A DNA stretch of 62,610 nucleotides, counting the filler, from Dugesia japonica (Eukaryota), in the NCBI GenBank assembly GCA_001938525.1. It is 5 parts of 5 records of this genome, joined end to end, with 100 filler letters (N's around TTAATTAATTAA, not from the genome) between each part and the next. Parts side by side here need not be neighbours in the genome. Positions count along the whole stretch, not along the records: positions 8,624 to 27,701 come from MQRL01645115.1; positions 27,802 to 37,172 come from MQRL01264084.1; positions 37,273 to 48,425 come from MQRL01609290.1; positions 48,526 to 62,610 come from MQRL01602986.1; 1 more part is not named here. One strand, 5' to 3'. Positions 21,606-57,306 of the stretch are shown here, in pieces. Below the pieces are notes generated by a model that was not told the origin of the DNA, made no database searches, and saw nothing but the letters and a program-made list of their open reading frames with translations. Numbering within the stretch: position 1 is the stretch's first letter; each line of letters opens with the position of its first letter. The translations under genes were made by a program, and so were the position numbers.

Positions 21606-21929
21606 ATATTAAGTGTGATTTATAGGTGAATAATGTACATTAAATGAATTTAACGTGTATTTACAAAGATTTTATCACATTATAGTGAAAATACGTGAAT
21701 GATTGACTGAATTATTATATTATCCCCTTTCGAAGGAATTGTATTCGTACAAGGTTCGTTAAAAATACACGGGTTAAATTCCTCCTTGATATTTCTCATC
21801 GTAGGGTATGGGGATGTAGGTCTATAAAATATTTCAAGCGGACGTCTTTGTTTGGTGAGATTATAAATTTTCGGTTCTTTTCCGATCGAATTTTTATAAT
21901 TGTCTGCTATTCTTTTCAATTCTTGCATT

Positions 21930-22853
21930 TATTTTTTTTCTTTATTCAAAGTATCTTCGTAATGTCTGAATAAGGGCGCGTATTTTGGTAAACTTTCAAG
22001 TACCTTAGAACCAATGATATCAACAGTTATGGTGGTAATTTTTTGTCCGGTATATAAAACCGCATGACAGGTTTCCACAATTTCTGTATCCAAGGACTTT
22101 ACTTCTATTATGAGTTTATGAGGTAATTGCGATAACTGTAATTGGAGTAGTTTCTTTTGTTGTTCTCTATTGATATATAGGTTATGATAACGCCCAGTTT
22201 GATAATATAACCGGGGTGATAATATATCTCGATGACGTAGTAGATTAAATTGTGAAGCACTTTTATCTGCAAAGGAATTTTCTGACGAATTCGAAACGAT
22301 CTTGAATTTTAATTAAATTATCGAATCTCCTTAATTCATTCTTTAAATGAAGCTGCATGTTGTCTTTATCTCTTCTGGTTTGTTTTGTTACACTGACTGT
22401 ACATAAGTCTTTCTGTATCTGGCTGAGGAAAATGACGTCTCTCTGCATGGTAATGTTGTTATATTTACCAACTAAATCGATAAATTCTGGAATATCTTCT
22501 TGATAGTATAAGGGTAGATGGTGGGCAATTCTTGTGAAATTGTTAAAGGGAACTTTGAGGATCAATAACATACTAAGTTCTTGTCCAACTTTTAAGGGTA
22601 GCATTTTCAAAAAAGAAACTCGTTTAGGATGAAAGGCGTCTATTTTACAAAAGCGACAGACTGGGTAGGGTGCGAGACTTAAGTTGGAAAGAAGGAAGAC
22701 TTCTAATATACAATTGAAACAGAAATAATGGCCACATTCCAAAATTCGTGGTAGTTTTAGGTATTCAAAACAAATAGGGCATTCAGCATCTTCGGATAAA
22801 TAATAAATAATTTTAGCTACGTCATCCCAACTATAATTTAATGGGTATTTCAA
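21930..22853 (-). pseudogene. RNF10/Mag2-like C3HC4 RING E3 ligase (cargo), one frameshift
   Basis: WDDVAKII...CPICFEYLKLPRILECGHYFCFNCIL..., LKVGQELSMLL, then LYYQTGRYHNLYIN...LPHKLIIEV, in the order of RNF10 conserved blocks. Confidence 0.7.
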
Positions 22854-22905
22854 GGCACGGTGTTTTTCATATAAAATTATAAAAATATACGTCTATGTGT
22901 TTTAT

Positions 22906-25071
22906 TTATTTTGTAATGGATAACGAGAGTTTTTGACCTTCTTCCTCTAAGGCTATGCTATCGTACATAGTATTTTCCCCTATAAACTTAAATTGTCCAT
23001 TAACACGTTTAATTTTTATTTGTTTAGTACCAAATATCACATATGCTTCATCATTGGTTATGTCCTTTATAGTGACTGTGGTATTTACTTTTTTATTAAT
23101 ATACATAATATCAGACATATCAATCAATGATTATCCAAAATCTAGAATTTCGATGTCAGGGTCAGATCCAAGTTCATCCTCACTGGATTCATCATCCGTA
23201 TAATATAGTACATACTGTTTACAGAATCTGACTTCTTCCGTTGTTAACTCCTGTAGTGGCTCCTTTATTTGCTCCTTGTATATTGGTCCTTCAGTTTTGC
23301 TTAGGTTCTCATGATTATCGTCTGAACTTGAATCCTCACTTGATTCATCTTCACTATCATCTGTATCAGAGTCACTATTTATCTGAATGATGTTACCTGT
23401 TGCGTCCTCTATATGTGTGTTCAGTTCAGTATTTTCTTTCCATCGTTTTGGTGACGACGCATTGTCTTCGGTTTCAGATTCATCAAGATCAACATTATTA
23501 TGGTTTAATCGTTAATTCTTTTTATTAATAGTTGGGTGATTTGTATTGGCTTGACAGTATCCATTTTACTGTTGTCTATTTCTTTTAATATTATGGGCCA
23601 ATAAACAGATTTTGGGAATATTTCCTCTCGTGGTAGTATATAAGTTACAGGTTCTAAAACATCCATTTTTTAATCCTTAGTTGGTTTTAGAGTATCGTCC
23701 CATTGATTTGTTTCTTTAAGGTGGATATATGCCTGTCGTATCCATTCAATTCTGTTGTTTGTAGTTTGTGTTATTGTAAGGTTCATTGACCAAATTAATT
23801 CTCTTATTCGAGGTTGGTATTTTATAGGTTTCAATATTGCTTCAACAATTGTACTTATCCGATGTTTTGCTGTATTGGGTTTTGATACTAATTTCTTATG
23901 CCATTTTTCTTCAGCAACCTCTCTATATCCAATAATGTGACTTTGATTCATATGAAGACTGGCTAATTTCTTTTCCAAGTCATAACCAATTAATACTTTT
24001 CCATATAACATTTGTCGGGCTTGGATTATTAACTTGGATTATTATAACCGGGTATGCATCTTCCTTTCCGAGGATTAATTTCTCGTCGTATCCAATTGTG
24101 TCTTTATAATAGTGTTTGATTCGCTCTCTGGGGCATAGTTTCTTGTTCAATAATGTTTTTCCTCTGAAATTCTGAATTGTAATCTCGATCATAACTGGAA
24201 GCATGTAGTGATCTGGTAAGGTTTTAATATCTATAAACATTGACATGGAGTCTATATCTTCTGATGATAGAATGGAATATTTCAAAAATGATATATTATT
24301 TAATAGAGAGGTATCATCTATTCTACAATGACCTCTTATTTTCGTAAATGCAGGAAAAGGTATTGGAAGTCTGTCGTAATACATGAACTCAACTCCTAAT
24401 ACAGCTGGAACATCCTGAATTTCAATTTTGATGTCATTAGCACTTTCCTTCCATATGCCTGTTAGTATTAGGATTTTATTCTGTAGTATTTCTATTTTCT
24501 CTTGATAATGTGTAAATTTGATTGCTGCTTTGGCGACGTGAAACCTTATTTCCTTTATAACTCTTTCTCCATTCTTTACTGCTTTTTCAGGATCGCTAAA
24601 TGTTCCCGTATATCCGCATAATTCTCTGAGTTTATATCTTTTCGCCTGNCGGAATCGGATTAGGATAATATCTTTGTCGAACGTATTATTTTTCAGTATA
24701 TTGGGAATAGTAGTTAAGTTGGTGAAGGGAGCAATTAAAGGTTCAGAAGATTTGTCGAGGAATTCATAATTTTGTATGTTATAGTATAAATTTTGATTTA
24801 ATTTGACTGCTGAGCTTTGTATATATGTGGTGTATGAGGGTACTGCTGCTTAAGTTTGGTTGTTGCCTGTTGATGCTTGCTTTACATTATGTAAGGAGTC
24901 ATGTTTGTTTGTTAGCATGTCTGTTTGTGTTTTATTATTGCTTGTTAATGCTTTTGAGTAATTATGTCTATTTGTCTGCATGTTGTATAATATAGCTGAT
25001 TGAACTGAAGTTAATTGATTGCTATCTATAATGAAAAAGTGTTTAATTGATTGCGTTAACAATAGTATCAA
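22906..25071 (-). pseudogene. Long cargo ORF with degenerate DEDDh (REX4/ISG20-like) exonuclease domain and acidic tract
   Basis: One frame from 25071 to 23980 with a single stop. FIDIKT...IEITIQNFRGKTLLNKKLCP...GKVLIGYDL. Followed by D/E/S-rich segments reading into 22906-23127. Confidence 0.6.
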
Positions 25072-25177: not shown

Positions 25178-25950
25178 TTATACCTGTGTCCATTGGACAT
25201 AATCTGGTGAGTTGGGGGTATTGCGACGCCAATAGCGCTGCCTCTTCCATTTATAGCGTTTGTCAATTTGATAAATTGATACTATAAACGCTACGGGGAA
25301 GAGTAATACACCTGTTCCCAAAATTATAAGGGGAATATTTTTTATTATTTTACTTTCAAGTTCTGGATTTTGTGTAGTGCCCCAAAGTTGTAGAATCTTA
25401 TTCTTATAGTATTAATAATTTTTTCATATTTATTTAGGTCTGAAATTCGATTTCTTATTAAATATTTACTTTCTGTATTATTTTTTATTTTATGATTGTC
25501 GTTTAAACTAGAGTTAGTAGTTATATTTGACTTTATGGGGGTTGATGTTATTATGTTAGTAGTAGGTTTAATTGTGCTTATTTCTGTGGGTATTTGTCCC
25601 CAAAATATATATTTTGGATATTCCGGGAATGTCTGTAGTGTGATAGTTTTGGAAGCGCGAGTAACCCAATTACAACTTCAGATCCAATTAATAGTAGTGT
25701 AATATCTAGTATTGGGTTCTAACCCATACATTTCTACAAATCTTGCTGTATTGCTTAGTTTTGTTCTTACTCTCACAAATAAGCAAGTAAGTCCGTAAGA
25801 GGTTCTATGTGTAGGAACTTCAAATGTGAATTTACGTAGATATATGCCTATTTTTACTATAGGCCAAAATCCTCCGGTAGGTGCTAAATACGTGAAATCT
25901 GCTGAACAACTTGTTATAATAGATAATAATATTAATGACATGATAGGCAA
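25178..25950 (-). pseudogene. Type I membrane protein in env position: signal peptide, FN3-like domain, Thr-rich stalk, TM, short tail
   Basis: MPIMSLILLSIITSCSA; GLEPNTRY...SKTITLQTFP; IPLIILGTGVLLFPVAFIVSIY then KRYKWKR; ends WTQV*. One stop and one frameshift. Confidence 0.65.
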
Positions 25951-25975
25951 TGAATTTTGTGATTGTGATCTGAGA

Positions 25976-26794
25976 TTATAATTGTTTTGATTTTGAAGTT
26001 ATCGGTTCTGTTTCTGCCAATTTGCACCTATTGACAGCAACTACTAAAGGATCATCATTTTTGTTCTTTATGACTTGTAGGTTTGTATCCGTTACTCTTA
26101 CTACCTCAAAAGGTCCTTTGAATATTCTAGTTAGTTTGTTTGTTAAACCTTTTTTTGAATTTGTAGTCTTTATTCGCACTTTATCTCCAACTTTAAATTG
26201 ATGTGGTTTTTTATTTTTGTCATAATAGTCTTTATACTGTTCCTGTTTTAATTTTACTCTCAATCCAGCTTGTTTATATACTTCCTGTAATCTTTCCTGC
26301 ATTTTTGTGACATAATCTGGATTNNNNNNNNNNNNNNNNNNNNNNNNNNNNNNNNNNNNNNNNNNNNNNNNNNNNNNNNNNNNNNNNNNNNNNNNNNNNN
26401 NNNNNNNNNNNNNNNNNNNNNNNNNNNNNNNNNNNNNNNNNNNNNNNNNNNNNNNNNNNNNNNNNNNGTTTTGATTTTTATTGACAAATACTGATAGTCT
26501 GTTGCATAATGTACTATTAAATCTTTCCACAAGACCATCTGCTGTGGGTGGTATGCTGAAGTATTTATCTTTTGAATATTAAACATTTAGTTGACTCTTT
26601 TAACTGTTTCACTTAAGAAATTTCTTCCTCTGTCTAACAGTAGTTTTTTAGGTGCTCCATATTTAAAAATAATTTTTTCCACTAATAGTTTTGCAACTGT
26701 TTTGGCTGATTCATCTTTGGTGGGGAATGCTTCAGCCCATTTTGTAAATACTTAAATACCCAAATATGTTTATTACCTTTTATTGTAGTGGGTA
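25976..26794 (-). pseudogene. Ty3/Gypsy integrase (core + GPF domain)
   Basis: FTKWAEAFP, YGAPKKLLLDRGRNF, TSAYHPQ, ERFNSTL and KGPFEV. Confidence 0.92.
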
Positions 26795-27701
26795 AGTAGG
26801 GGGATAGTAGCGCTAGGCGAGAGGGCCCCCCCCAGGTGGGGCTCGGAAACGCATTACGTTGAGCTGCGTTTTTTTAAATCGATAATTATTGATTATCGAT
26901 TTTTAATCTGATTGATTATCGATTTTTGATCTGATAATTTTTTTGATCGGATCAGATTTTTTGATCAGATCAATTTTTTTTGATCGGATCAGTTTTTTTA
27001 TCTTTTTTTTACCTTTTTTTAAAATTTTTTTTTTACCTTTTTTACCTTTTTTTTAAGAGAGAATTTTTTTTTAATTGTTTTTTGTTTTAATAATTAAACT
27101 TTTTTGTTTTAATTAATGAAGTTTTTTTTTGTTTTAATTAATGAAAATGGTTTGTTTTAATAAATGAAGTTTTTTTTTGTTTTCATAAATACTAGAATTT
27201 TGTTGGTAATTAAAAATTTTTTTTTGTGAGAAGACTTTATATTTATGTATTCTTGATATTTTGGATGCGAAGTATTTATATTTTGCATAGAATGGGAGGA
27301 AATCTTTTTAATATAATTAAATTTAATTAAATAAAATAAATTAAATTAACTTATTTATGCATTGTATGGGCAGTCTCTATATTTATGCATGGTATAGGCA
27401 GTCACTATATTTATATATGAGATGGGGCAGTCTTGATATTTTTAAGATATTATTACAAGATATGTGCAGTCTTGTAATTTTTAAGATATTATTATTACAA
27501 GATATGTGCAGTCTTGTAATTTTTAAGATATTATTATTACAAGATATGTGCAGTCTTGTTATTTTTAAGATATGTGCAATCTTGTTATTTTTAAGATATT
27601 ATTACAAAATATTATTACAATAGTTGCCTAGACTCAGATCCGCAAAATGGTCAGGAATTCCAAGTCAACTGTTATTTATTCAATACATGACATTTTTTTA
27701 T
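26795..27701 (+). mobile_element. Probable Polinton terminal inverted repeat inserted into integrase
   Basis: Begins AGTAG exactly where integrase coding stops. GC-rich tip followed by tandem repeats (e.g. ~38-nt AAGATATGTGCAGTCTTG units at 27440-27620). Shares sequence with 16025-16190 and, inverted, with 29100-29700. Confidence 0.55.
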
Positions 27702-27801
27702 NNNNNNNNNNNNNNNNNNNNNNNNNNNNNNNNNNNNNNNNNNNNTTAATTAATTAANNNNNNNNNNNNNNNNNNNNNNNNNNNNNNNNNNNNNNNNNNN
27801 N
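27702..27801. other. Artificial scaffold spacer
   Basis: N44-TTAATTAATTAA-N44. Confidence 0.97.
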
Positions 27802-29706
27802 AGATTTTTTAATAAAAATTGCAACATTTATGAGATTTTTTATTAAAAATTGCATGACTAATATGTTTTTATTAGAAAATTTATAAAAAAGTTCTGTTTT
27901 TATCGTCTTGTAAAGAAAAGTTTTAATTTGAATATTTTATCATGTAAATATCACAAAGACTCCCTTCTTTGAATATTTTATCAAGTTAATTAATTTTATT
28001 TAAATTTTAGACTGACCAATATCTTGCAATAATATCAAGACTGCTCAATATCATACTTAATATCAAGAGTACATCAATGTTTTAATAATGAATGCAGTAT
28101 AGATGCAATAAGAATGCAATACAGCAACAATTCCCTGGGAATTTTTAAAAAATGCAATAGGCACGAAATTGGGTTGCAATAATGATGCAACAAAGCTGCA
28201 ACACACATTCATTGAAAATCATGCGCCTAAGAATTTTTTAAATTTCCCGCAAAAAATAATGTTTTTTTAAATTTCCGGTCAAAAAAAAATTTTTTAAATT
28301 TCCTGCCAAAAATAAGTGCGATAGGTATGAAATATGAATGCAATACAGCAACACATGTCTGAGAATTTTAATAAATGCAATAGGCATGCAACTCAAATGC
28401 TACACAATTGAAACACACCAGCACGTGCATGGGAATTTTTTAAACTACTCAAACCATGAAAATATAGCATTAATCTAAAGAAAATCGCTCCCACATAGCG
28501 TAACTATGTAAATAATACAAACTATACATGGTAACTAAGTAACTAATCCGTAACTATGTAAATTATAGTATAATTTTTAAAAATTTATATTTTATTCATT
28601 TCATATTAACATAATTATAATAATTACAATTATGATTTGAAGAAATTAAAAAATCAATAATTATATTGATTACTTAATTTTATATTATCATAATTGTAAA
28701 TATTATAATTATGCTAATATGAATTAGAATTCTTGATTTTAAATGCATTTTTTATATGAAATTTAAAAATAATCAATATCTTTATTGATTTTTTAATTTC
28801 ATATTTACTTAATTGCATTTAAAATTCAAAATGGAAAATTAAATATGTAGAATTTAAAAATGGTGAGTTTATCTTTTTTATATGTTAATTTAATGTAAAT
28901 TTAGGTAAATCAAAGAAAAAGTGCCATTATTATATGGTCTATTCTGATTAAAGGTTCCATTAATATGGTCTATGATATTTAAAGGTTCCATAGTAATATG
29001 GTCTATGATATTTAAAGGTTCCATAGTAATATGGTCTATAATGTTAAAAGGTTCCATTAATATAGTCAAAGATGTCTAATATGTGCTAAATAGTATAATA
29101 AAAATGTCTTGTATTGAATAAGTAACAGTTGCTTTGGAATTCCTGACCATTTTGCGGATCTGAGTCTAGTCAACTATTGACGATGATGACTGATTATTTT
29201 TAAAATAATTGAAGTGGTGTTCAATTATGTCCGAATGTGAACGGATAGAAGCACTGCTACCGGAGATGCACATACTGTAATCGAACTTAGCTTAGTTAAA
29301 ACTTCGCAAGCTAATCGATAAGTTCAATTATGAACAGACTCGAATTGGATGCTAAAGACCTTGATGGATTCGCTCCGTCGGACTGTACATGTAGGAGGAG
29401 GTTGTTTAATGGTATGAAGGAAAACAAGACTGTTACTGAAAGAATGCATGAAAATAATTATTAATAATTTATTTCAACTAATTAACTTATTAAAATTTAA
29501 TTAATTTCTTATTCCTTAAATACCTTTGAGTATATGTATTTAGACTACCATGAGCATATGTATTTAGACTGTCCCATCTCATGCTAAATATAGTCTCCCC
29601 ATTCAAAATATAGAGTCTCTCATGCAAAATATAGAGAATCCTCCTATACTATGCAAAATATAGACTCTCCATACCATGCTTAATACAGAGAATCCCCCCA
29701 TACTAT
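27802..29706. repeat. Non-coding repeat-rich region, probably Polinton subterminal
   Basis: ~30-nt ATATGGTCTATGATATTTAAAGGTTCCAT repeats at 28930-29070. 29101-29178 is a reverse-complement match to 27620-27695. Confidence 0.55.
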
Positions 29707-31345
29707 TGTTGGGGTCCCACCTAAGTTGAGTGAAAAGGGGTGGTGGCTGGGGAAAAAACAGCATTCAGGGGAACCCTTTTAAGAATTTAACCTAACGCCC
29801 CAGGTTAGGTCTTCAGTTTATGGTGGTTGACCTCTCTCATAATGAGAGGTGCGCGCCCATAAACCTTTTGGTTTGGGTTCATTATTTTCCTTTAACTGGT
29901 ACCAACATTTAAATCAGTGACACTGCAAACATTTATTATAATAAATTTACATTTCGTCTAACACACTAGGGCCTAACCATTGGTCCGGATCTGTCGCTAA
30001 AAATCCGAAGGCGGCGACATCATCGTTATCGTCCCAAGGGACCCAATTTGGGTTGCCAATTTGGCGTGAAAGATCAGCGATGTATTGTTTCAAAAACTCG
30101 ATCTTCCTCAGTAATAATTGCTTGTTTTCGACTTCCAAGGCCTTAGCGTGAACTGCTAAATCGTTCTGCTTTTTTACGATTAAGTCTAACCTCTTTATCA
30201 ATCTGTCCCTCTGAGACAAACGCTTAAGCAGAGCCGATCTGTCTTACGCTCCAAGTGTCTTTCGATCAGAAGTCGGCGCATGATGCGGTGGCACCTACGG
30301 AGGTTATTGGGAAAATTGATGGAGGCACTAAAAAATAAAATAAGTTAAATGTATAATTGTTCGACCACAAAAGTCATGCGAACATTAAGGTAATAACAGA
30401 ATCCAAAAGTTTAATAATAACTTTATTAACAAAAAAAATTTATTTCCATATGACTAGCTTCGAGGGGTCTGAGTGCCCTTCTCGATCATCAACGGCTCGA
30501 GAGGGATTTTCTCCCGGAGAAGTAAAATATCGCTAACCAGTTTATTTTCTCGGTCATGGCTAGACCGGATTATATCCGAAAAAGACTCTACTTGTCTTTT
30601 CCAAATGCGCTCCTGGGAATGAGAGGCTTCTGCTTCCTTTTTAAAGAGCGCGCATTTTTTCTTATAGCGTAAGACCTTACTATTGGCCGCGGATACTTCA
30701 GCTTCCCATCGGCGTTTGGTTAATCGATATAAATCCCACTGAGTTCGAAGTCCGCACTGGTATCTCGGGATTTCTTAGTAGGGGCTGGAGGACGGTTGAA
30801 TGAGGGATGCACTAAAACGAAAAAATATATAACGACAAAAGCTCTCATAACTTTATGTTTCTAAAAAGACACAGTAGTCACAAATTTGATTGCTAAGTTC
30901 TAGAACACCTAATTTGACTTGCAAACCTGGAAAACGACTTGAGAACGAGGAAAAAACAAAAATCTCTTAAAAAACACACAGAACACCGAACATATATTTT
31001 AAACAAGGACATGCAGATAAGTTATTATATGTCACACATATTAATCACTGAGGAGAAGTTGAGGAATCCGGTACGCGTGCGGTATTTTCCGAGTCTTTAC
31101 TAGCCGAAGGCTCTCTTATCTCCCAGAGCAGGTTAGAGATGAAGGACTGTACCGCGGGAGCTGGGGGTGGCATTGTAGGCTGAAACTGGAAAGGCGTCGC
31201 AAGGGGCGAACAGGGCCTGTCCAGGCTCGGTATTGTTGACGCTCGCCGAAGTCTCTGATGCGCTCCACGATAGATTCTACCGGAGGCAAATTTGATCGGT
31301 CGGCCAAAATGGCCGCGTCCCGATTGTGAGGGTTGTAATATCGTC
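29707..31345 (-). mobile_element. GC-richer insertion with small ORFs and a 201-bp LTR-like end, truncating PolB
   Basis: TGTTGG (29707)...CCAACA (29907). Abrupt composition change at ~31345 where PolB homology ends. Confidence 0.45.
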
Positions 31346-32360
31346 GTAAAAATGAAAATGAAATGTAAACATCAGTATTTAATGGAATTAGATTTTTGAT
31401 TTCAGATGGATATAATTTACACAATTCTGTAAAAATAAAGTGATTATCAAATTTTGAAGCATTGTGTGCATAAATTGGAATAAAATACTTTTTTATTGAT
31501 TTATCTTCAAGAATACATTCTTTATGAGCATATCCTCTAAAATTACCATTCCAGTGATTATGATCTTTAACAATTTCTGAATATTCATTAAATATTTTTT
31601 CACAATAATAACATTTTATAGGTAAGCCAACAATTGTAGAAGGATCCAATGGAAACATTTTATCTTTGAGGATTATTTTAACTATTTTATTAAATCTAAC
31701 TAACCAATTGATGAATTTTTCTATACAATCAAGACCAAAGAAATCCATGTAAAGACTAGGAAGTAATGGTGAATTTGAAACTAGATTAAACCCCAAAAAC
31801 ATCGGTTTTAGGATATCATTGTCATTAAAAGTTTCAATATCATAATAAATAGTAAAAGGATTTTGATTTTTGTAATAAAATTTAGTAAATCTATACCTAT
31901 CTTGAAAAGTAAATTTCATGGTTGATGATTTGAAATTAAAACAAGATTTTTGATGATTGGTTAATGAAACAAGGTTTCTTTTAAATGTCATACAGTTTAT
32001 ACAAATTTCTTGTAAATGATGACTCTTGGTAAATATTTTACGTAAATCACGAATTAGTATATAATGATTGTTGAATAATAATAAATTACATTTTCGTTCA
32101 GTATGTAATGGATATGTAATCAAAATGTGTGTGTCAAAATTGTATTGTCGTTTCACATGAAGTTTACAAGCTACACAGTAATATGTTTTTTCAGGTGTTA
32201 CAAAAGTCACTGGCTGTTGGGCCACTGACTGTTGGGCCACTGACTGTTGGGCCACTGGCTGTTGGGCCACTGACTGTTGGGCCACTGGCTGTGCAGAAGA
32301 AGTTTTGAACAAATTTTTGTTATTTTGTTTAGTCGCAATTTCAATTCTAGCTCTAGACAT
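31346..32360 (-). pseudogene. Polinton PolB N-terminal/exonuclease region, truncated
   Basis: NHYILIRDL, IYYDIET (Exo I), DHNHWNGNFRGYAH, PIYAHNASKFDNHFI (Exo II). A 15-bp AQQSV/AQQPV coding repeat lies at 32205-32290. Confidence 0.9.
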
Positions 32361-32529
32361 TTTAAGTATATTTATTTAGTCTTGAATTAAAGTCCAACTT
32401 TCAAAATTTCATTTTTTCCAAAGTCTAACTTAAATTTTTTATATTTGCTAAAACGTCTGGATCCACTTTGTTGTCCACTTTGCTACCAGCCTTGTGATCT
32501 ACTTTGTGATCCAACTTGTGACTAATTTT

Positions 32530-33353
32530 TTATAATTTATTATAATGTTTAATCTTTTCAGATATCCAATTTAAATCATTTTGAAAATCGTACAATCTAG
32601 ACTTGTTTAATTTATTTTTCATTTCTAAAATTAATTCATTATCTGTTAAATGAGATTCTTCATTTCTTAAACTGGGATAGATTTTATAAACATATTTACC
32701 AGTCAAGTCTTGAAAAGAATTTTCAACTTGATAGTCGATTTCAGTAATTCCATCATTATTAAGATCATCATTCATTTTCTATACAAAAATTATTTAATAT
32801 TATTTGTTAAAATTTTAATACTTGATAAAAATACTCCTTTGGAAATCCATATTGAAAAATAAGTAATTTTTATTTTTGGTTTTATTTCTGTCTTTAATGA
32901 TTTTAAACCTGATGTAATTTCATTTGGTGATTGAACTTCTGATGATTTCATTGAAAATCTATATATTTTATTCTTTTTTGGTTCAAATATAAAATTTTTA
33001 AAAGATTCATTTGTTTTTAAAAAAATTTCAATATACTTGGTTTTGGGATATCCTATAAATTCAAAAAACAATTCACCTGGTTAGTTTGTTTCAAAATTTA
33101 TTTTTAATCTATCCAAGAGATGATAGTAATAATTCATTTCAATGATTTCCATTTTTCCTTTTCTTACAATTGATGAAATTTTTAAATAATCCTTGTTTAA
33201 TATGGTAATAACTGGTAAATTATTTAAAGGACTCATTGTTGATAAACTAAAGATTGTTTTGTTCAAATCTTTATCTTGAAAAGATGTAGGTTTATATGGA
33301 AAATAATTATTTACAAGTGATTTTAATTTAATCAACAACAGGTGAATAAACAT
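32530..33353 (-). CDS. Three small Polinton ORFs (truncated membrane-protein homolog 32530-32775; hypothetical 32790-33071; NYFP family 33081-33353)
   Basis: Homology and synteny with copies at 2005-2923 and 10330-11501. Confidence 0.65.
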
Positions 33354-33373
33354 TTTTTATCCAAATTTTCTTG

Positions 33374-34012
33374 TTACAATTTCTTGTAAATCTTGACAAC
33401 ACTAGTCAAATCAAAATGATTAGTTATTAAATTTATTCTACTCTTTAACTCTGGTAAAGGATCGTTTAAAGTTTGAAGATGATATTGTTCATGATATTCA
33501 AACTTGGCTTTCAACACATTTAATTCTTGATTAATCTTTTTTAAAACATCTGGTGAACAAGTACTTGAAATATTTTCAATTTTGGTTTTTAAATCTTTCA
33601 ACTGTTTTTTTATTTCACCATATTTTACATCATCATCATATTTTACATCATTCTTTATTTCACTTTTTAAATTATTAATTTTAACCAACAAGTCACTTTT
33701 TTCTTCAATAAACTTTTGTGAAATTTTTACATTTGCTTTTTCTAATTCTTGAATAGTGACTTGCTGTTTAATTAAAGTATTTTCTAGTTTTTTAATTTTT
33801 TTATCAACAAAAATATTTATATAATAATCAACATATTCTTTATTCACTACATCATGTTTATTAATCGGTTTTGTTTTTATTTGTAAATTTGAAACTGAAT
33901 CACCAGTTTTATTAACATATTTATCATCAATCATTTCCAATAAATTAGAAGTTCCCATTGAATCTAAAGTACTTCCAAATCTGTTCATTATTGAATTTGA
34001 AAATGTATGCAT
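33374..34012 (-). CDS. Polinton coiled-coil/fibre-like protein
   Basis: Intact 212-aa ORF with PINKHDVVNKEYVD motif and heptads. Confidence 0.65.
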   Translation of the reverse strand: MHTFSNSIMNRFGSTLDSMGTSNLLEMIDDKYVNKTGDSVSNLQIKTKPINKHDVVNKEYVDYYINIFVDKKIKKLENTLIKQQVTIQELEKANVKISQKFIEEKSDLLVKINNLKSEIKNDVKYDDDVKYGEIKKQLKDLKTKIENISSTCSPDVLKKINQELNVLKAKFEYHEQYHLQTLNDPLPELKSRINLITNHFDLTSVVKIYKKL

Positions 34013-34016
34013 TTAT

Positions 34017-34529
34017 TTAATACAGATTTTTATTCGATAATAATATTTTCAAAGTCTTTAGTTTGAACCATTCTTTAAATAATATAAATACACAAATCCT
34101 AGTTCCACAAGGCTGTACTTGATTTTTGTTTATTTCACATTTACTTTTCAATCCTAGTAATGTCAATAACTTTTCAACTGGTTTGATTAAAGGTAAGCCA
34201 AAAGAATCAAAATAAAAAGCTAAATTATTAAAGATTACAAGAGCAACCCAATGGCTTCCTTTTTGATTCGAATTTTGATAGTTTATTATGTAATTAATGG
34301 GAATTTTATAATTTTCTAAATCTTGTAAATTAGTCAACTCATTAGACATTACTACTTGGATATTTAAATTTAAAAAATCAGCAATTGTTAATAAATCAAA
34401 ATTAGTCATTGTTTGAATTCCAAAAGTCTTTAAAAAATCTAAAATGTTGTATTCACATTTTACATATACCATTTTTGTATGCGACATTTTGTATGTGTCA
34501 TTTTGTATGCGACATTTTGTATGTGTCAT
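34017..34529 (-). pseudogene. Adenain-like cysteine protease, C-terminus frameshifted
   Basis: GSHWVA, YFDSFG and QVQPCGTRIC. The 5' end overlaps a 14-nt CATTTTGTATGYG repeat (34470-34560). Confidence 0.9.
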
Positions 34530-34568
34530 TTTGTATGCGACATTTTGTATGTGTCATTTACATAAACA

Positions 34569-35240: not shown

Positions 35241-35244
35241 TTAT

Positions 35245-36615: not shown

Positions 36616-36789
36616 TTTTTGAAATATAAAATTTAAATTGAAGATTCTAAAATGAGGGGAAAGACTACTACTAGTACAACTGTTAAAGTTATTACAACAA
36701 GTGGAACTACATCAAAACCTAAACCTAAACCTAAACCCATTTGTCACTGTAAATCTAATTGTAAATGTAATTGTAAAATTATTATTCTA

Positions 36790-43429: not shown

Positions 43430-44600
43430 TAATAGAATGTCTTTTGGCATTGATGCTGCTCCTTCGACTTTTCAAAATCTGATGTCGATAATTGTAGGTG
43501 ACATGATATGGAAAGAAGCTTTAGTTTATTTGGACGATATTTTAATTTTTTCCTAAACCATAGAAGATCATAAGATAAGAATAGAAAAACTATTTCAAAG
43601 AATAGATCATAGTAAATGTTTTGATTCAGATTCCTTTAGAAAAATGGCATTTAAATATAATTCTATTATTAAATATTCAAGTCCTTATCATCATCAGACA
43701 AATGAACAGATTGAAAGACAATTTCGAACAATAAGCTTGTAGTTTAAATGATAAACTATATAAAACATCGGAAGCAGCCTTATCTCACATAGAATTTTCA
43801 ATGAACTCAACCATTCAAAAAAGTATCAACTTTACACCAGCAAAAATTATATTTGGCAAAAGAATATTGAAAGAAAGATTTATTAGCACTAATGACGGAA
43901 ATATGGATGAAATAACTTATATAAAAAAGACAAATAATTTACGAGACAAAAATAAAAGCATTATAAATGCTAATAATAGGATAAATAGTTATGATAATGA
44001 GCGTAGAAGACATAGGGTATTGGTGATCGTGTGTTAATTTAAATGGATGTCCGAAATAAGCAGGATAATAGATTTAAAGGCCCATTTAGAATTATTAATA
44101 AATTACATGAAAATNNNNNNNNNNNNNNNNNNNNNNNNNNNNNNNNNNNNNNNNNNNNNNNNNNATGGATGTCCGAAATAAGCAGGATAATAGATTTAAA
44201 GGCCCATTTAGAATTATTAATAAATTACATGAAAATAGGCTAAAGCCAAATAAGGAGGGGGAATGTGATAATAAATTAATTAAAATTAAATTTATCATTT
44301 TATTACATAATACTATCAATTTTTTTTTGAAAACAAGGGTTAATAATTATTTAATATGTGGGTTTTGGTATGCATGTTTGATTTTAATATAAAATATAAT
44401 GCTTATTTAGAATGATGTGTTTATGAATGAGTATGTCCTCCATTACGAAATCATTAAAGATTTCCCCAAAATAAACCAGAAAAATTATGTCATTTAATAT
44501 AATTTTTACTAGCAATTATTTGTCTTCAAACAATAAGTAAATAAGAGTTTTAAATTTGTTGTAGATTCTTCTAGATAATTGCATAACTAAAAGCTCTCCG
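43430..44600 (+). mobile_element. Ty3/Gypsy relic in DAO intron 1
   Basis: RT APSTFQ...VYLDDILIFS, integrase SSPYHHQTN..IER, FKGPF. PPT AAGGAGGGGGAA then TGTGATAA (LTR start ~44264; right end approximate). Confidence 0.85.
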
Positions 44601-48425: not shown

Positions 48426-48525
48426 NNNNNNNNNNNNNNNNNNNNNNNNNNNNNNNNNNNNNNNNNNNNTTAATTAATTAANNNNNNNNNNNNNNNNNNN
48501 NNNNNNNNNNNNNNNNNNNNNNNNN
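48426..48525. other. Artificial scaffold spacer
   Basis: N44-TTAATTAATTAA-N44. Confidence 0.97.
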
Positions 48526-48528: not shown

Positions 48529-48580
<52 letters not shown>

Positions 48581-48595: not shown

Positions 48596-48901
48596 TTTTG
48601 GGTTTTTAAGATTTGTTTATTTCAATGCTCTTAATTTAAACCATCTCTGATTGACATCACTCTTGCTTTCAACCAATTGTCACATAATAAAGGGGCAACC
48701 TAAAAACCATAAGCGTTTGCGTCACCTGTGTGACAAATGGAATTATTCTGATTACGCACNGATTAAATAAATATTATTGCCACTCTACTTATACGATACT
48801 TTTACTGTTTTTGATTTTTGAATACAAAGTTTTTTTGCATAGTAACACCGTTACCATTTCCCACATATAATTTACAGTACTCTACATTTTGGCATCCATT
48901 G

Positions 48902-49417
48902 TCATACATTTCTCTCTTCTCCATACCACATCCTCTCACTAGTCTCGATAGTGTTCAGGATTGTGGATACGCTCGGTAATCGGTTAATTTGGGATAGAAT
49001 AAGTTCTGCATTATAAGTTTGTAACTCTTCTACTTGGTTTCTCAGTTTCTCTATGATTTTGTTAGTTCCGCTCAAGGTTTGTAGGTAGAAATTCTGATTC
49101 TCAGTAATCTGTCGTCTCTGATTCTCCACTATTTTATTCAATCTATGTAACTGCATCACATGGAAATTGTGATTCTCCACAAGGGTTGCATTTATTTGTC
49201 GAGTCTGTTGTAACTGTTCGTTCAATACCTTGGAGTTCATCATTACACCCCGGCAGTGTTCGTCCCATAAATTCTCCATTGCAAAATAAGGATTTAAAGG
49301 TTGATTAAGCAATTGGGTATAAGTTTGTACTGGTTCCTCCACAATTGTTCTGTCGACGTCGTCTAGATCCACATTTACTGGTAACTGCCCATTCATTGTT
49401 ATCCGTTTCTGATCCAT
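48902..49417 (-). CDS. Hypothetical coiled-coil protein (last cargo ORF)
   Basis: Intact 171-aa ATG-initiated ORF with Q/N/L-rich heptads. Confidence 0.65.
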   Translation of the reverse strand: MDQKRITMNGQLPVNVDLDDVDRTIVEEPVQTYTQLLNQPLNPYFAMENLWDEHCRGVMMNSKVLNEQLQQTRQINATLVENHNFHVMQLHRLNKIVENQRRQITENQNFYLQTLSGTNKIIEKLRNQVEELQTYNAELILSQINRLPSVSTILNTIETSERMWYGEERNV

Positions 49418-49589
49418 TTTACTAAATAAATACTACGATAAAAATACTACAGTGATCAATCCCAAAACAAATTTACAAATTACTCCATAATTTAATTACT
49501 TTACATTTCGAGCTACTCAAAAACTAAATTGTGTACCTTACTGTTAAATTTCAGGTAATTTATTTACAACTTTGCTCTCACTAACCTCC

Positions 49590-51360
49590 TCAATAACTCC
49601 ACAAAAACTCAGTTCCTCCCTCAGGAATTCCCGACCGCACCAACTCTCTTGGCGGGTGCAAATATTTCGCTATCAACTCTCTTAATTCTGGTTCCAATCG
49701 CAGTCTCGGATACTGCCCTCGTTTTGCCTTACAAATTAATATTGTTATAATCGTCATCAGAATTATCGTAATGACGCCCGCTACTCTACCACTGAATCCT
49801 GCTGACCAATTCCTTTCATTTTCCATTTTGCTTTGCTTCGTTGTTGCCTCATGCTTCAATCTAGCTTTTGCCGGAAATGTCCTTCGTGAACCGATCCTTA
49901 CCAGCTCTTTCATCAATTTGTCAATAAAATCCTCTTGTTGTCTATTTAAAATATTCGATGGCTTTCTAGTTGATTCACNNNNNNNNNNNNNNNNNNNNNN
50001 NNNNNNNNNNNNNNNNNNNNNNNNNNNNTCTGGTTCCAATCGCAGTCTCGGATACTGCCCTCGTTTTGCCTTACAAATTAATATTGTTATAATCGTCATC
50101 AGAATTATCGTAATGACGCCCGCTACTCTACCACTGAATCCTGCTGACCAATTCCTTTCATTTTCCATTTTGCTTTGCTTCGTTGTTGCCTCATGCNNNN
50201 NNNNNNNNNNNNNNNNNNNNNNNNNNNNNNNNNNNNNNNNNNNNNNNNNNNNNNNNNNNNNNNNNNNNNNNNNNNNNNNNNNNNNNNNNNNNNNNNNNNN
50301 NGGCTTTCTAGTTGATTCACTTTCAGTTGTCGTTTTCACATACCTCGTCATCGCATGGTTTCTCTTTTTGCTTCGTACACTGGTTTCCCCCGTGCTCCTC
50401 TTCATGATAGTTGATGTCGCCGTCGTTGTCGTTTTCGGATACACCATCTTCGTCAACCTCTTTGTTGTTGACTTGACCGTTGTCATCCTCAAGTAAGTTT
50501 TCGTTTTTGGTTTCCCTTTTGTCGTCGGTTCGATGGTTAGTGCCCTATTGCCCTGGGGCGTCTCGTCTACTAATATATATTCTAATTCTAACCATTCCCA
50601 TTTTTTCCGATTAAGTTTCATTATCATTTCGTGTTTATTACGGTTCCATCTATACTCTTGTAACACTCCGTCTTGCGTCCAATATGTGAACGATCGATAT
50701 TGCTTAATCCGAAACAACAATTTCTTTCTACGCGACACTTGGAACGTAACTTCTGCATCTTGGGGTGTCCTTTGATTCTCTTTATCTACTATACTCATTT
50801 TCATATCGATCATAGGCCACTCTCCGCTTCGGAAGGCGAAATGCTGTCCCCATACACCTGATGGAAACTGGTTCCATTGAGTTCCCGTCACACCCCGCGG
50901 TTCGATCTTCCAGACTTGCGAGATTTATCCCGCCCGTTTTCCCCGACATTTATCGTTGAATCCGAGCCAGGCTGGCTCATATCGGTCACGCGTATAATAG
51001 AGCACATGGATATAGTGGTAGTAATAAAACTAAACTCTCTGTGGGCTTCGAATAATCCCGAATCATGGCTGTAGGTAAGAAGTATGTCTTCATCCTCCAC
51101 CACACTCCACGGTCTTGGTTTGTATTGGACAATTCGAACTTGCTGTTTCTTACTACCTTTGATCTTGATGTCTAGAGACCAGGTGAATCTATAAAGGTCT
51201 ATTTTAGTCGATTAATATCTGGTTTTTAGCAGAGGTTCTAAATGTCATGTGTTCCCCATACTTGTCACTGTGACTCTTTCCAAACCTTTCCTTGAGATTG
51301 TTTGCACTTGCGTTTTATAAGTCATATAGATTCGATGTTCCGTATGAATATCCTCGTAAT
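49590..51360 (-). pseudogene. Membrane-protein cargo: beta-rich ectodomain, Thr-rich stalk, TM helix
   Basis: Frames 50888-51360 and 49590-50891. TT-rich stretch followed by VAGVITIILMTIITILIC-KAKR. Confidence 0.6.
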
Positions 51361-53859
51361 CATTACACTCTTCCCACTTGCTACTTTAAACACAATTAGT
51401 AATAATACTGCATACATCCACTTGTTCCATTGATTTGTTAACGGGCTCCCATTTCTCGGCATCTCGGGATCAGGCTGAACCTCCCACTGTAATTGCGCTT
51501 GATTATTCACGGTTATTACTAAGATTACGATTGTCACTGCGAATGCTAATGCCGCTATTACTGCCGTTAACAGTTTCCGATTATCGTTAATCGTCTGGTT
51601 CACTACAATGGTTGGTCCTGCTGACCAATCTCGTTCCATTCCTATCACTTCATATGCGATCAACGCCATTAGCACATATATCCATTTACTCATTAGCTTA
51701 GTTTGTCTATTTGCTCCACTGGACATCATGGATGACTCATTAAACTCATACAATTTTGTCACTTGTACGGTGGTTGGCCATGCTACCGCTGTTAGCATTA
51801 CTAACCAAAAAATAATTATTGATACAGATATCAATGCTAAGCAAGTCCATATTGTCCTCCGACACTTTCTCAGAACGGCCGGCTTGGTTTCATCTTTTAG
51901 ATCTCCCGATTCATTTTCGTAAATATGATCATGTGATTCAGATTTTATCATTGCGTAGACATAATTTCCTTCCGACGTGTTGTTCCCATTCGTGGGTGGT
52001 TCTGGTAGTGGAGTTCCTCTACTCGGTCCTTTAATCGTGGCTTGATCTATCATTAAGTTAGTTTCTCGTTCGATTATTTGATTCATTTTTGCTCCACACT
52101 CATATTGACTTGTTCCAACCTTTCTTTTCTCTTGTTTCTCTTGAATTACTCTAATCTCCTGCATTAACTCAGGTGTGATCGGCATCTCAAACAAGACATT
52201 GCCCTTGAGGTCCATCATTCCAATCACTACTATCTCGTCCTCGACTTTGTCATTATCTTTTGTGTCGCCCTCAGGAATCCCGCAAAAGGTAAACATTTCT
52301 GCTTACGTTAGCGTTTTAGTCTTCGTTTCTGGTTCCGTGGTTCCATGACATTTTTGCAATCGTTTGCACCCTTCTCCTTTCCTCGACTCCTGTTCTCGTT
52401 CTTGTTTGGCTCTACGCTGCAGCGCTTGTAGGTACAATTTTTTCATCGCTTCACTCTCTTCTGCCATCAATGGATGTGGATAAACATCTGCTATTCTCTG
52501 GTACTCGATTACCATATCTTCACTTCTTCTTAATCGCTCTTCGCAAGCTTGTTCGGTAAGCGATTTTCCGTTGTACGATTCTTCAATTTTTAAATATTCC
52601 TCTAGTTTTTTGTAGAGCGCACCGTATTCTCTTTTATACTTTTGTTCATGATACTTCTGGAGTTCTTGATCTGTCAGCCATCTCTCCATCTTATCCCCAT
52701 ACTGTATCGTGGGGAATTTTTTTCCTGGACGTTCTGTACACCATTTGCGTTTTCTCACTTGATAATACGCTTGCATTTCCAACTCTTTCTCTTTAGGTAT
52801 GTCCGTTCCACGACTCAATACTGTTTCTACTGTTAATAATATAGCAGCTTCTATTTCCTTATTTTTCTACTTTCTTTGTCGCTCCTCTTCTGACGTTGGC
52901 CGCTCTCCAGACCTCTTTTTATCATTATCCTCTGATACTTCAGGCTTTCCTTCCTCTTTATGTTTCTGGGCCCATTTTTGATAACATCTTTCACCGTACG
53001 CTTCAATCTTTTCTAACACGGCTGTTGGCACCTCCACCCTATCTTTACAATACGCTCTCATCATGGCTATCGTTGCGGAATTAAATATTTCGTCTTCCTC
53101 AGATTCGACCCTCTGACTATTCTCTGCTTCATACTTCTTTCGTTGTGTTAAAAACTCCTTACATACATCCTCCTTTAGTTTCGTGATTTTTGGTGTATCG
53201 CTCGGTTCTGCATGCAGTGGTCGTCCGCTAAATTCACAATAGTCCCTCATTTTGCTTTTTATCACTTCCTCTAGTGAATCGTAACCATTTTCACCGTTAT
53301 CGTTATCTGAATAAGAATCCATCACTTCCATAGTCGCACTTTGAACTTGCCGTCTGTTATTTTTATTTTTTCTGTTCCTCTTTCTCCGATTTCTACTTTT
53401 ATTCGATGTGCCAGGCAGATTTTTCAGTCTGCTGTTGTTTTCCTGTTGCAGTTACTTCCCTGCTTTTTGTTGAATCTCTTGTTTATCTTTCTCTAATTTC
53501 TCCACCACTTGTTTGAATGCCTGCACCCATTGTAACGCATTTTTCAATTGTTCTACTTCAGGCTCCCTTCGCCCGTCATTTTCTTTTATAAATTGTACCA
53601 TTTCTGCCATCCTTTTGGCTTGCTCCACTTTATATTCCGCATCGTTTAGTCGTCCTTCATACTTTTCTTGACGCTTGCTGTGGGCTTCCCACATAGTTTT
53701 CAATTTTTGTTTATTCTCCTCGGAGATAGTTAATTGAACGTTCTGTCTCTTCAAATTGTAGTCTGTTTTATTGCTCTCTCGCATCTCTTTCATTATTTGT
53801 TTTTTGTCAATTAATTCTTTGTGAATTCTCCGTATTTGCTCATTGAACAACAACTCCAA
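51322..53859 (-). pseudogene. Single reading frame broken by three in-frame stops: coiled coils, charged helical region, four hydrophobic helices
   Basis: ORFs 53452-53859, 52867-53331, 52303-52818 and 51322-52296 share one frame, and the linkers between them translate openly. Confidence 0.75.
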
Positions 53860-55700
53860 TCACTCCCCCCGTTTGAGAAATCGACGTCCTCGTCGATGCC
53901 CTCTGCCTGACTCTTAGTTCTACTCCACCGTTCCTTTGGTGTTATTGGTGTCAACGATTCTCCTTTAACTGGTATGGCTTGGCCTAGCTTTAACCATTTC
54001 CTGGCCTCGTGCAACACATTCATTGCCTCTTGCAATTGACCGCGCATATCGATTGCGCATTTCAAACACATTTCTTTGTATACCACTTCCAGCACGTGCA
54101 ACTCCACTTGAACTTTCTCGTTCACACAACTCACACAATATGCACTGTGCCACACTCCTGTTTCCAGTAACCATTGGCCTCTGCGTTCGACTTGTAATAA
54201 CGACCGTTTATTACTACGCTTCGTATTTCGGTAACATCTTTTACATAACTTCATGATATCCTTCTCAGTGATTGGGCATCTGGTCGGCTTCCATGCTCTA
54301 CATTTATTGCATACCGTCGATTCGATCTCATCGTTTTCCGTTGATGCCGGCTGATCCTTATAGATCCAAAACTCCTCATTCTTTGTAGTAACTATCTGAA
54401 CACCGGTCAGACTTGGTTGGCATAGCGGTCTCCATCCACTCTGAGGAATTAGTCCATTCATGTTATATCGTCCGCATCTTGGATTGTCGCATTTTCGATT
54501 TCCTTTCTTCCAGTCGTCCGTCACTGAAGAATAATATTGATTAAGCATGCCTCGTCTATTTTCATGAATATTTAATTGATCAGTTAATTTAAATTTTTGT
54601 AAGATTTCGTCATGAGTTAATTCTATATCTCGTCTAATAGGATTGGCCACTGTTGATCCTCTCATATGTACATGTAGGCACTCCAATTCATTGTCAATAA
54701 TTCCTTTAGGCAACCATTACACCATTGCTGATATAAATCAGCGTCTACTTTCAGTTTGAATGTTATTTCATTACACTGTTCAAAGGTGGAACTATAGGGT
54801 TCCTTTCTATCTTCTCGTAATGATTCTCGTTGGACACTTTTGTCCATCAATGTTAAGTTATCATAGCTCGATTGTAAACAGTGAAAACATGCTTGGCTCA
54901 TAAGCACTTTATTCAATGGCACTTTATTCAAAGATTTCGTACAGTGGCATATTTTACATCGCAAGACTAGATTCTCCTGATTGCATGTACTCGGATTGAC
55001 ATCTACCGCTTTGATAGCTTTCTCAGCTTTAATACTCCTGCTTAAGATAAACTGATCTTGCTTTTTGCTGGTAACTATTTGAATCACTAACAGACATGGC
55101 TTGCATATCTGCTTTTCCAGATTACGCACACGACCTTCTGGCTCGATGGATTGCCCACATAGTGGATTATTACATGTTCGACTCCCTTGAGTCACTCGTT
55201 CCTTTATAGACGAGTAATATTGTCTCAATATAGCACCGTCATTCTCACAGGTATCTGAATTATTAACTACCTCATATTGTTGTACAATCTCAGTCGGCGC
55301 TGGTTCTATATTCCATCGTACAGGATTTGCAGCTGTCAACACTTTTAAGTGTTTATGTATACACTTAATCTCTGTTGTAGCAATTCTTTGTGCGAAGCTC
55401 AAACAACTTCAGCACCACTGTTGGTATTCACTTGTTACACTTGGTAATTTAATCGATGTCCGACCACATAATTCGCATGATAATTTGTTCATAATAAACT
55501 TTCCTCTCCCTTGTTGGGTAGATTCCCGACTCAAATTCTCCACTAACTCTGCTACATCATCACACATAACCCGCTATCAATGATAACATGCTTTTTCAAT
55601 AAGCTCTTTGTTTAATGGCACCGAATCCGGTTTTGTTGCCACACAGAATATACACCACTTTTCTTGTTTAACACTTTCCTTTTCTTGAATTTCACCCTTA
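53811..55700 (-). pseudogene. Tandem Cys-rich (CxxC) repeat protein region
   Basis: ANP[VI]R..IE...L.QYYSS...G.R.C.NP.CG...C.P.L..[IV]QIVT.K shared by 54662-55402 and 53811-54713. A further partial copy lies at 55400-55660. Confidence 0.75.
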
Positions 55701-55848
55701 GTACTTTTGGTTTTACTGGTCTTCGTATTCATCATCATTATTTGTGTTCTGGATCTAATTGAGTATCAATCTTCCTCATTGATTAACTTCGTTTTGAAAC
55801 TCAGCCGCTTCTTAACTTTTGGTTTGACCTCCTCTTCATTCTCTTCTG

Positions 55849-57306
55849 CTATTGGCTTGTGGCTGCTATTGTTTCTTCCTCGCTACTTTTATCATTAGCT
55901 TCCTTCGTTGCTGCTAATTTACATCTTGATACATGAACAATACTTGGCTTCTTGAGTGGCTTTCCCACTTCCTTTACTTTTAGATTTGTTGCAGTTGTCT
56001 CTAACACTAAATAAGGTCCTTTATTTGGTCGTTTTNNNNNNNNNNNNNNNNNNNNNNNNNNNNNNNNNNNNNNNNNNNNNNNNNNNNNNNNNNNNNNNAA
56101 CGTATGAGGCTTTGTATCTCGATCATACAATTCCTTATAACGCTCTTGATTAAATTACGCATTTAGCGCTGCCAATCTCCATATTTCTTGCATTCTCTCT
56201 TTCATGCCGGTGACGTAATAATCCTTGTCCATGTATTGCGGTATTGGCGGCTGATGCTCTAAATCTATTGGCATATTACATTCTACACCATACATTAATT
56301 TAAAAGTTGACGCTTTTGTCGCGGGATGTTCTCCCATCCGATATGCAAATAAACATAAATTCAAATGTTTGTCCCAATCTCGCTGGGATTTCGTCGCATA
56401 ACTCGATAACATTCTAGTCAATGTCTGATTAAACCGCTCCGTCATTCTATCCGTTTGCGGATGATACGCCGATGTNCGTACTTTATGAATATTAAAATAA
56501 CTAGTCACTTCTTTCATTAATTCACTCATGAAATTCTTTCCTTGATCTGTCAATATCTTTTTCGGTGGGCCATATCGACTGAATAATTTATCTACTAATA
56601 CTCTTGCGATTGTTGACGCTTTTTGATCCTTTAATGCAAATGCCTCGGTAAATTTTGATTAATAATCCACTACTGTCAAGATATACGCTTTTCCACTGTC
56701 CGTTGGCGGGAATGGTCAGATTATATCCATTGCAATTATATCCATTGGTGCCGCTAGCACTGGTATTGGTTGTAACGCAACTTTAAATTTCTTTCCAGTT
56801 CCTTTTGTTGCCTCACAAATCTCGCATTTACTAATCCATTCTCTCACACATGTCGTAATATGAGGCCAATAATATTTTGCTCGTTATTTGGATTCAGTTT
56901 TCTTTGCTGACATATGACCTCCGAGAACTCCATTATGATATTGTTCAAGTATTCTTGCTCTTCTACATTTTGGTATTACCAGTAACAGTTGATCACCTTC
57001 CTTCTTCATTAACCATTCGTTTACCACAGTGTATCTACCACCTCGTTTCTTTAAATGTTTCTTCATCGCCTTGTTACACTCCATTTTACTTAAGTCAAAG
57101 TGAGCTATATATTCTAAGATTATTTTTACTTCCTCGTCTTCGTCCTGATCCTTTTTCAATCCGGTAAAATCTTTATTCTCTGCCAATATCATACATAGAG
57201 ATCGTATGTCTCGATTCATTAATTGTTGTAAGTCTATCCATTCACCTCTGGTTGATTTATTTTCTACCAATTCCTCTGGTTTGTCTGTAAATTTTGCTCT
57301 TGACAT
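55849..57306 (-). pseudogene. Ty3/Gypsy integrase (HHCC, DDE core, GPY domain)
   Basis: YHNGVLGGHM, YWP...C.IC, IAMDII, LTDQGKNF, TSAYHPQ..MTERFNQTL and KGPY; contains stops. Confidence 0.93.

Follow-up and report, generated by a model that had tools for sequence, protein, structure and literature searches.

The envelope (env) genes that Gypsy elements carry are generally regarded as fusogens borrowed from viruses. Two decayed Ty3/Gypsy elements, here designated A and B, were analyzed in a 62,610-nucleotide stretch of Dugesia japonica DNA (GenBank assembly GCA_001938525.1; this whole stretch is referred to as the window) and were compared, by description and from the available portions of the cited papers, with the closest described systems. 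In the metazoan env-carrying Ty3/Gypsy “errantiviruses” (PMC13524379, eLife 2026), a signal peptide, an ectodomain, and an anchor lie behind pol, as in the clade to which A and B are assigned below. The errantiviral ectodomains are F-type and gB-type fusogens, whereas those of the clade are far shorter and appear to resemble fibronectin type III (FN3) domains. The available main text of that study, searched apart from its supplements, contained 0 occurrences of fibronectin, RING, and exonuclease.

In Vesta and Juno of bdelloid rotifers (Rodriguez et al. 2017, PMC5408684), a third open reading frame (ORF3) replaces env and encodes a DnaQ-fold 3'-5' exonuclease or a small membrane protein, and the same study includes a nonautonomous family lacking most of pol. 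The Vesta/Juno nucleases are of the DEDDy type with intact catalytic residues, whereas the nuclease-like proteins of the present clade are DEDDh type and mostly substituted; ORF3 is separate, whereas the membrane protein of the clade is in frame with integrase. Burro/GYPSM1 of planarians (Arkhipova and Yushenova 2019, PMC6431247) is, like element B, a multicopy Gypsy element with a three-knuckle gag, and its MATH, Ubi2/SUMO-like, and BIR cargo lies between gag and pol, the site at which B carries a repeated unit. Burro differs in its size (~30 kb), its fusion-glycoprotein env, and its retention of protease (PR), reverse transcriptase (RT), RNase H (RH), and integrase (IN) in the order PR-RT-RH-IN. 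A Pfam search of A and B detected no MATH, BIR, ankyrin, or BCL2 domain.

The window comprises five scaffolds of a fragmented, AT-rich draft assembly in which decayed DNA of Polinton-like and Gypsy type is abundant. Both elements are on the minus strand, A on scaffold 2 and B on scaffold 5; the spacers between window parts (27702-27801, 37173-37272, and 48426-48525) thus place them on separate scaffolds, in agreement with the preliminary description of this DNA. Both are Ty3/Gypsy copies interrupted by stops and frameshifts (Table 1), and they are classified as dead copies from a single Ty3/Gypsy (Metaviridae) clade. The hallmark of this clade is a predicted type I membrane protein encoded in frame after the integrase, mostly with an FN3-like ectodomain.

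Integrases and the membrane protein behind them

The integrase tails of A and B, which had been described as clearly alike, were 33% identical over 90 amino acids (E = 2e-13), a score reached by 0 of 5,000 shuffles. Over 182 shared columns, the two integrases were 48% identical; for 73 further Gypsy integrases, identity averaged 30% and peaked at 40%. Six close relatives were recovered from environmental sequences, namely, P0005 and P0006 (among 61 protein matches), L002 and L003 (among 29 metagenome loci), and L044 and L045 (of 6 loci from genome bins of prokaryotes); no clade member was matched in viral contigs. L044 (1-4655) and L045 (1-1891) are eukaryote-type retroelement contigs within bacterial bins, probably reflecting binning errors. 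An integrase phylogeny, which the preliminary description had proposed as its test, placed A and B in one clade in three trees. A, B, and relatives grouped with support of 100/98 (50 rows, LG+G4) and 100/99 in a C20 mixture tree of 24 rows, the bootstrap of which was not fully settled, and a clade of all eight members was supported at 100/99 in a tree of 34 rows. The rows omitted were 12 partial matches, near-duplicates with >65% identity, and, in the 24- and 34-row trees, further rows.

The Ty3/Gypsy gene order PR-RT-RH-IN was found in L044, and RT-RH-IN was found in P0006 and L003. Element B has gag, an RH remnant, and a GPY/F-type integrase in the Ty3/Gypsy order. Integrase is the sole core gene of A, as no gag, PR, or RT was found on its scaffold. 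An AT-rich repeat (72%) pairing 26834-26985 with 16040-16182 lies at the point where the 5' end of A is cut.

In all six relatives, the integrase frame stays open past a Y-x-[LF]-R motif and continues as a signal-like segment and an ectodomain. These are followed by a Ser/Thr-rich stretch and a membrane anchor in the five of five relatives with the end present (in L044, across one stop), and the part behind the integrase is 361 to 430 amino acids long in all cases. Among outgroups, a signal-like segment and an anchor were both present in 1 of 38 proteins, a count that would miss an env encoded as a separate ORF, and that one protein has a baculovirus-F-type env domain. The Thr-rich membrane protein previously noted in both elements was recovered, with Ser or Thr at 15 of 40 stalk residues in A and 18 of 40 in B and a membrane anchor in each.

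The ectodomain looked FN3-like in five of the six relatives, mostly with one to three units per protein. A profile built from eight units of four loci matched contactin-1 (E = 0.0037), neogenin, NCAM2, Dscam, fibronectin, and PTPRC, and 21 of the 24 proteins matched are ones that we take to bear FN3 domains. P0005 gave a weak match to fn3_2, and the Atlas neighbors of the FN3-like unit of A were fn3 clusters at 0.82, which is a lead only. No F-type or gB-type fusogen domain was matched by Pfam in A, B, or the six relatives, and the ectodomains look FN3-like rather than like a known fusion protein. In searches with the FN3 profile, no homology was detected between the B ectodomain and the FN3-like ectodomains.

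RING protein and pseudo-nuclease of the A-type members

The RING reported earlier in A scored above the Pfam cut-off (Table 1), and its match to the RING protein of L002 extended over 172 amino acids (E = 2e-18). Six intact relatives of this protein (404 to 446 amino acids; 43 to 100% identical to that of L002, with one being L002's own cluster) all have eight zinc ligands in RING spacing, as does A, with the last pair shifted. A profile of the family matched the cellular protein P0073 (712 amino acids) with a probability of 98.6 (E = 5e-16) over 298 columns, reaching far past the RING. We take P0073 to be RNF10/Mag2-like from its motifs, and the RING of A belongs to an element-borne family resembling this putatively RNF10/Mag2-like cellular protein. 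Likeness to RNF10 (yeast Mag2) lies in the C3HC4 RING and in the downstream region in common with P0073, presuming that P0073 is named correctly; the present proteins differ in being element-borne, in their length (404 to 446 versus 712 amino acids for P0073), and in having their own Cys/His/Asp-rich C terminus. RNF10 is reported to attach a single ubiquitin to RPS3 and to cause the dissociation of stalled 40S subunits (PMC11604940). Viral contigs contained generic RINGs only (13 loci). A near-invariant Cys/His/Asp-rich motif was observed at the C terminus of all six relatives (P0067 to P0072), with no counterpart in the cellular match.

The nuclease-like ORFs of A, L002, and L003 matched one another at E values of 2e-6 (L002 versus A, tblastn) and 3e-6, and a profile of L002 and L003 found both halves in A in the correct order. 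This profile had a single PDB match, to ISG20L2 (E = 6.7e-4, 148 profile positions), and L003 matched Pfam RNase_T under the cut-off (E = 0.0033). By itself, the ORF of A matched nothing in Pfam, PHROGs, NCBIfam, PDB, or the protein collection (215 to 686 amino acids), and its DEDDh fold is assigned through its relatives L002 and L003. At the positions that we take to form the catalytic motif (the D, E, D, H, D set), the acidic residues are mostly substituted in the alignments of A, L002, and L003. The likeness to ISG20L2/ISG20/REXO4 thus consists of the sole PDB match, and the differences consist of the mostly replaced catalytic acids, an additional N-terminal domain, and a low-complexity tail. 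The DEDDh-like remnant that had been claimed for both elements was therefore supported, via relatives, in A and not in B, where no DnaQ fold was detected at 52000-52302 in sequence tests with Pfam, the clade nuclease profile, or hhalign (E = 0.31).

The order of genes toward the 3' end was membrane protein, RING, and pseudo-nuclease in L002; membrane protein, pseudo-nuclease, and RING in A; and membrane protein and pseudo-nuclease, followed by the contig end, in L003. Because the RING (A and L002) and the pseudo-nuclease (A, L002, and L003) are homologous, the cassette appears to have been inherited and its order shuffled. The A-type cargo is thus read as a conserved, inherited cassette of shuffled order that was not repeatedly gained.

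Layout and copies of element B

Contigs of two DNA runs (21,183 and 9,937) covered 30 of 30 bins across 48761-60585, from gag to the last ORF, and most contigs on B were <99% alike, with depth not representing a copy number. Since all 30 bins were covered by many diverged contigs, the layout of B belongs to a large diverged family, and B is a member of a large multicopy family and not an assembly chimera. RNA reads on B (215 and 9) were mostly <95% alike and on both strands, with at least two-thirds continuing in unlike sequence. An alternative genetic code was ruled out, as the stops fall at unrelated residues; 4 of 19 stops are, moreover, sense codons in nearly all other copies among 40 of 1,087 rows.

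In place of PR and RT, between gag and RH, element B carries two units of ~190 amino acids that are 33% identical (E = 2e-27), separated by a gap of 12 letters in several contigs that cross it. No match to PR or RT was found in this copy by Pfam or by tblastn with the proteins of clade members. The ubiquitin-like (UBL) segment that the preliminary description had placed in the 3' cargo of B turned out to be the end of this repeated unit, 5' of the integrase. The repeat ORF had 0 matches among 1.84 billion representatives and none in viral contigs, and searches with the UBL segment were likewise negative in Pfam, PHROGs, NCBIfam, and PDB sequences. Two structural models made for the UBL reading had low pLDDT (40 and 47); the first shows a strand-strand-helix-strand arrangement compatible with a beta-grasp. 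In fold searches with both low-confidence models, no ubiquitin-like chain was among the matches listed (best Z, 4.5 and 2.8), a result that excludes nothing.

The 3' cassette of B extends over ~7 kb and has no cargo sequence in common with A; outside the integrase and linker, nothing in B matched L002, L003, L044, or L045 at an E value of 0.01. For its Cys-rich repeats, three of three PDB matches were eS31 (E = 0.25 to 0.58, a lead only), and no family was found in Atlas (best, 0.78) or in viral contigs. Part of the membrane ORF is duplicated through assembly (49687-49854 = 50029-50196). The candidate polypurine tract at 48909-48922, which is directly followed by TG, is one of four such sites in B and hence weak. 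A short W-S-A-G motif precedes a hydrophobic segment in both 51325-52302 and 49593-50196, hinting at duplicated signal-ectodomain-anchor modules, and tandem repeats of 92 and 39 bases (61479-61889 and 62161-62271) upstream of gag are possibly a leader or long terminal repeat (LTR) of B.

The chances are about even that this copy of B belongs to a minor deletion sublineage within a family whose members mostly keep PR, RT, and full RH between the repeats and the integrase. The similarity of B to the RH of clade members starts abruptly at 57514, the summed depth at 57544 is 507 against ~50,000 for its bin (a hundredfold dip), and one 379-base contig departs from the window sequence at 57566 and continues for 151 letters. 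On the other hand, 57544 is covered by 13 and 6 contigs in the two runs, a 324-base contig is collinear with B over 57490-57776, and the reading frame is open through the junction. Nor was any loose end found near the junction among the 18 listed (1,244 others), and comparable dips occur elsewhere, with position 49728 having a depth of 30,267 in one run and 587 in the other.

Elsewhere in the window, decayed Polinton/Maverick-like DNA with pieces of DNA polymerase B (Pfam, E = 0.0012) was found on several scaffolds (220-1844, 8629-13527, and 31116-36711). It includes an adenovirus pX-like ORF at 36337-36711 (E = 3e-4, under the cut-off) and ORFs that are presumably protease-like and minor-capsid-like. 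Other Gypsy remnants (14339-15555 and 43413-44245) showed ~25% identity to the RH-integrase region of the clade, and an inverted 85-base repeat, 93% alike, occurs on two different scaffolds (27618-27701 versus 29095-29179).

Table 1. Annotated features of elements A and B in window coordinates
Element	Feature	Position	Strand	Basis or remark
A	Two short ORFs	21683..22312	-	First may extend RING protein; match not significant
A	C3HC4 RING protein, roughly half as long as its intact relatives	22266..22892	-	Pfam zf-C3HC4_4, E = 8e-9; match to L002
A	Acidic low-complexity pieces	23134..23669	-	Probably tail of pseudo-nuclease ORF; L003 ORF likewise acidic at end
A	N-terminal domain and DEDDh-type (ISG20L2/REXO4-like) pseudo-nuclease, two frames	23673..24849	-	Nuclease-like part ~23820-24240
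A	Ser/Thr-rich stalk and membrane anchor, two frames	25181..25677	-	15 of 40 stalk residues Ser/Thr
A	Y-x-L-R-S motif, signal peptide, one FN3-like unit; off the integrase frame in this copy	25681..25998	-	Hydrophobic amino acids 17-31
A	Gypsy integrase, 5'-truncated; stop, frameshift, assembly gap	25979..26810	-	Pfam rve; tblastn with clade members
B	Last ORF, coiled-coil-like	48905..49432	-	End at candidate polypurine tract
B	Ectodomain pieces, Thr-rich stalk, membrane anchor	49593..51211	-	Includes 168-base assembly duplication
B	ORF with five hydrophobic segments	51325..52302	-	Its start had been read as a DEDDh remnant
B	Charged coiled-coil-like ORF pieces, one frame	52306..53859	-	
B	Cys-rich repeats, two full and one partial, probably zinc binding	53990..55765	-	Faint eS31 zinc ribbon likeness
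B	Full H2C2-core-GPY/F integrase, four in-frame stops	55852..57342	-	Pfam, tblastn
B	RNase H C-terminal remnant	57407..57514	-	Pfam RT_RNaseH, E = 8.5e-4, match confined to model positions 57-86
B	Two tandem ~190-amino-acid units (58516-59043, 57650-58213)	57650..59043	-	Each ends in the segment earlier read as UBL
B	gag, three CCHC zinc knuckles	59320..60812	-	Pfam Retrotrans_gag, E = 1e-8; zf-CCHC, three stretches

Alternative explanations, proposed mechanism, and significance

Taken as a whole, a reading in which A and B belong to one clade with the layout described above, with the functions proposed below and a single cassette replacement, is considered reasonably probable. Several points weigh against it. 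The relatives were picked for the resemblance of their integrases to those of B and P0005, and the trees were built without named GyDB or Repbase references; the position of B as the deepest branch is weakly supported (82/57 with 34 rows and 91/39 with 24 rows), and a topology with A and B as sisters is compatible with the data (p-AU = 0.44). No LTR pair was found in the window or in any clade member, the scaffolds and contigs stopping early. Extra genes are visible in three members only (A, L002, and L003), the RING was not seen on the contig of L003, only the RING of L002 was located in an element, with the other RING relatives lacking genomic context, and no database gave P0073 a name. Support for FN3 is modest, the best E value being 0.0037 and the Pfam cut-off never being reached; the unit of A itself matched the FN3 profile of the relatives weakly (hhalign, E = 0.009), and the ectodomain of P0006 is Cys rich, with no match to that profile.

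It is possible, if unlikely, that the clade has already been catalogued, for example, among Repbase flatworm or rotifer Gypsy elements or as a small relative of Burro or of Vesta/Juno, and that the novelty is confined to how its cargo is annotated. Burro has the three-CCHC gag, and between its gag and protease lie a Ubi2/SUMO-like domain and further cargo of the ubiquitin system (PMC6431247). The ORF3s of Vesta and Juno encode DEDDy nucleases or small membrane proteins (PMC5408684), and the family of B is large, so repeat libraries would likely contain it. Among the 61 protein matches, however, none that was named exceeded 39% identity. The env of Burro is a fusion glycoprotein between gag and pol (PMC6431247), the DEDDy nucleases of Vesta/Juno have intact catalytic residues (PMC5408684), and the available portions of both accounts mention neither FN3 nor this RING (PMC6431247 and PMC5408684). 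No description of the clade was found in the literature searched, with Repbase and most subscription papers outside the search, and the available portions of PMC11410931 and PMC8532177 contained nothing on it.

The preliminary description had proposed a swappable 3' cassette by which the lineage repeatedly acquired surface proteins and ubiquitin and RNA-decay modules. The expectation that relatives would carry cargo was borne out by the membrane protein in six of six relatives and by the extra genes in L002 and L003. Swapping held for the replacement in B and the ectodomain change in P0006 and failed for the A-type set, which was inherited and shuffled; repeated acquisition was not upheld, the RING and pseudo-nuclease being homologous among A-type members and B having none of them. 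A freely swappable cassette that independently and repeatedly gained a surface protein, a DEDDh protein, and a ubiquitin-system module is improbable. The absence of common cargo sequence between A and B, the Cys-rich rather than FN3-like ectodomain of P0006, the different gene orders of A and L002, and the stalk and anchor in both A and B would fit it, but the homology of the A-type genes between members, the undetected DEDDh in B, and the position of the B repeats 5' of the integrase speak against it. Instead of parallel capture of the same functions, the sequences suggest a single wholesale replacement (B versus all other members) and a change of ectodomain in at least one case (P0006). Passive capture of host DNA, nested insertion, or poor assembly, with no role of the cargo for the element, is highly improbable: the window is a fragmented draft with much decayed mobile DNA and both A and B are broken, but elements with an integrase identity of only 46 to 57% have open frames and a gene set in common, the six RING relatives are intact, and the entire layout of B is covered by many diverged copies.

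Under the reading of one clade with a single cassette replacement, host signal peptidase would cut the membrane protein from Pol, and the released protein would be displayed on the surface of the cell or particle, where it may serve attachment or adhesion in place of a fusogenic env. The RING protein may be a captured RNF10/Mag2-type ligase acting on stalled 40S ribosomes, and the pseudo-nuclease may bind RNA ends without cleavage; together, they would most likely guard the translation and stability of the long element RNA or dampen host RNA surveillance. The cassette of B would have taken over from the A-type cassette once, by recombination behind the integrase, and RT-less copies of B would provide Gag and integrase themselves and rely on reverse transcription in trans.

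A fuller claim remains tentative and is thought rather unlikely to hold in all its parts, namely, that this is an undescribed, widespread Metaviridae clade in which the viral fusogen has given way to a host-type FN3 adhesion protein synthesized within Pol, with an RNF10-like ligase and a dead ISG20L2/REXO4-like nuclease forming a counterdefense kit that modulates ribosome and RNA surveillance, and with a highly amplified RT-less branch that retains Gag and integrase and bears ~8 kb of orphan cargo containing eS31-like zinc ribbons. If true, an FN3 adhesion-type protein in this clade would represent another route to a surface stage. An intact captured ligase of ribosome quality control would make retroelement manipulation of 40S ubiquitination testable, and a large family with integrase and without RT would be an unusual nonautonomous element.

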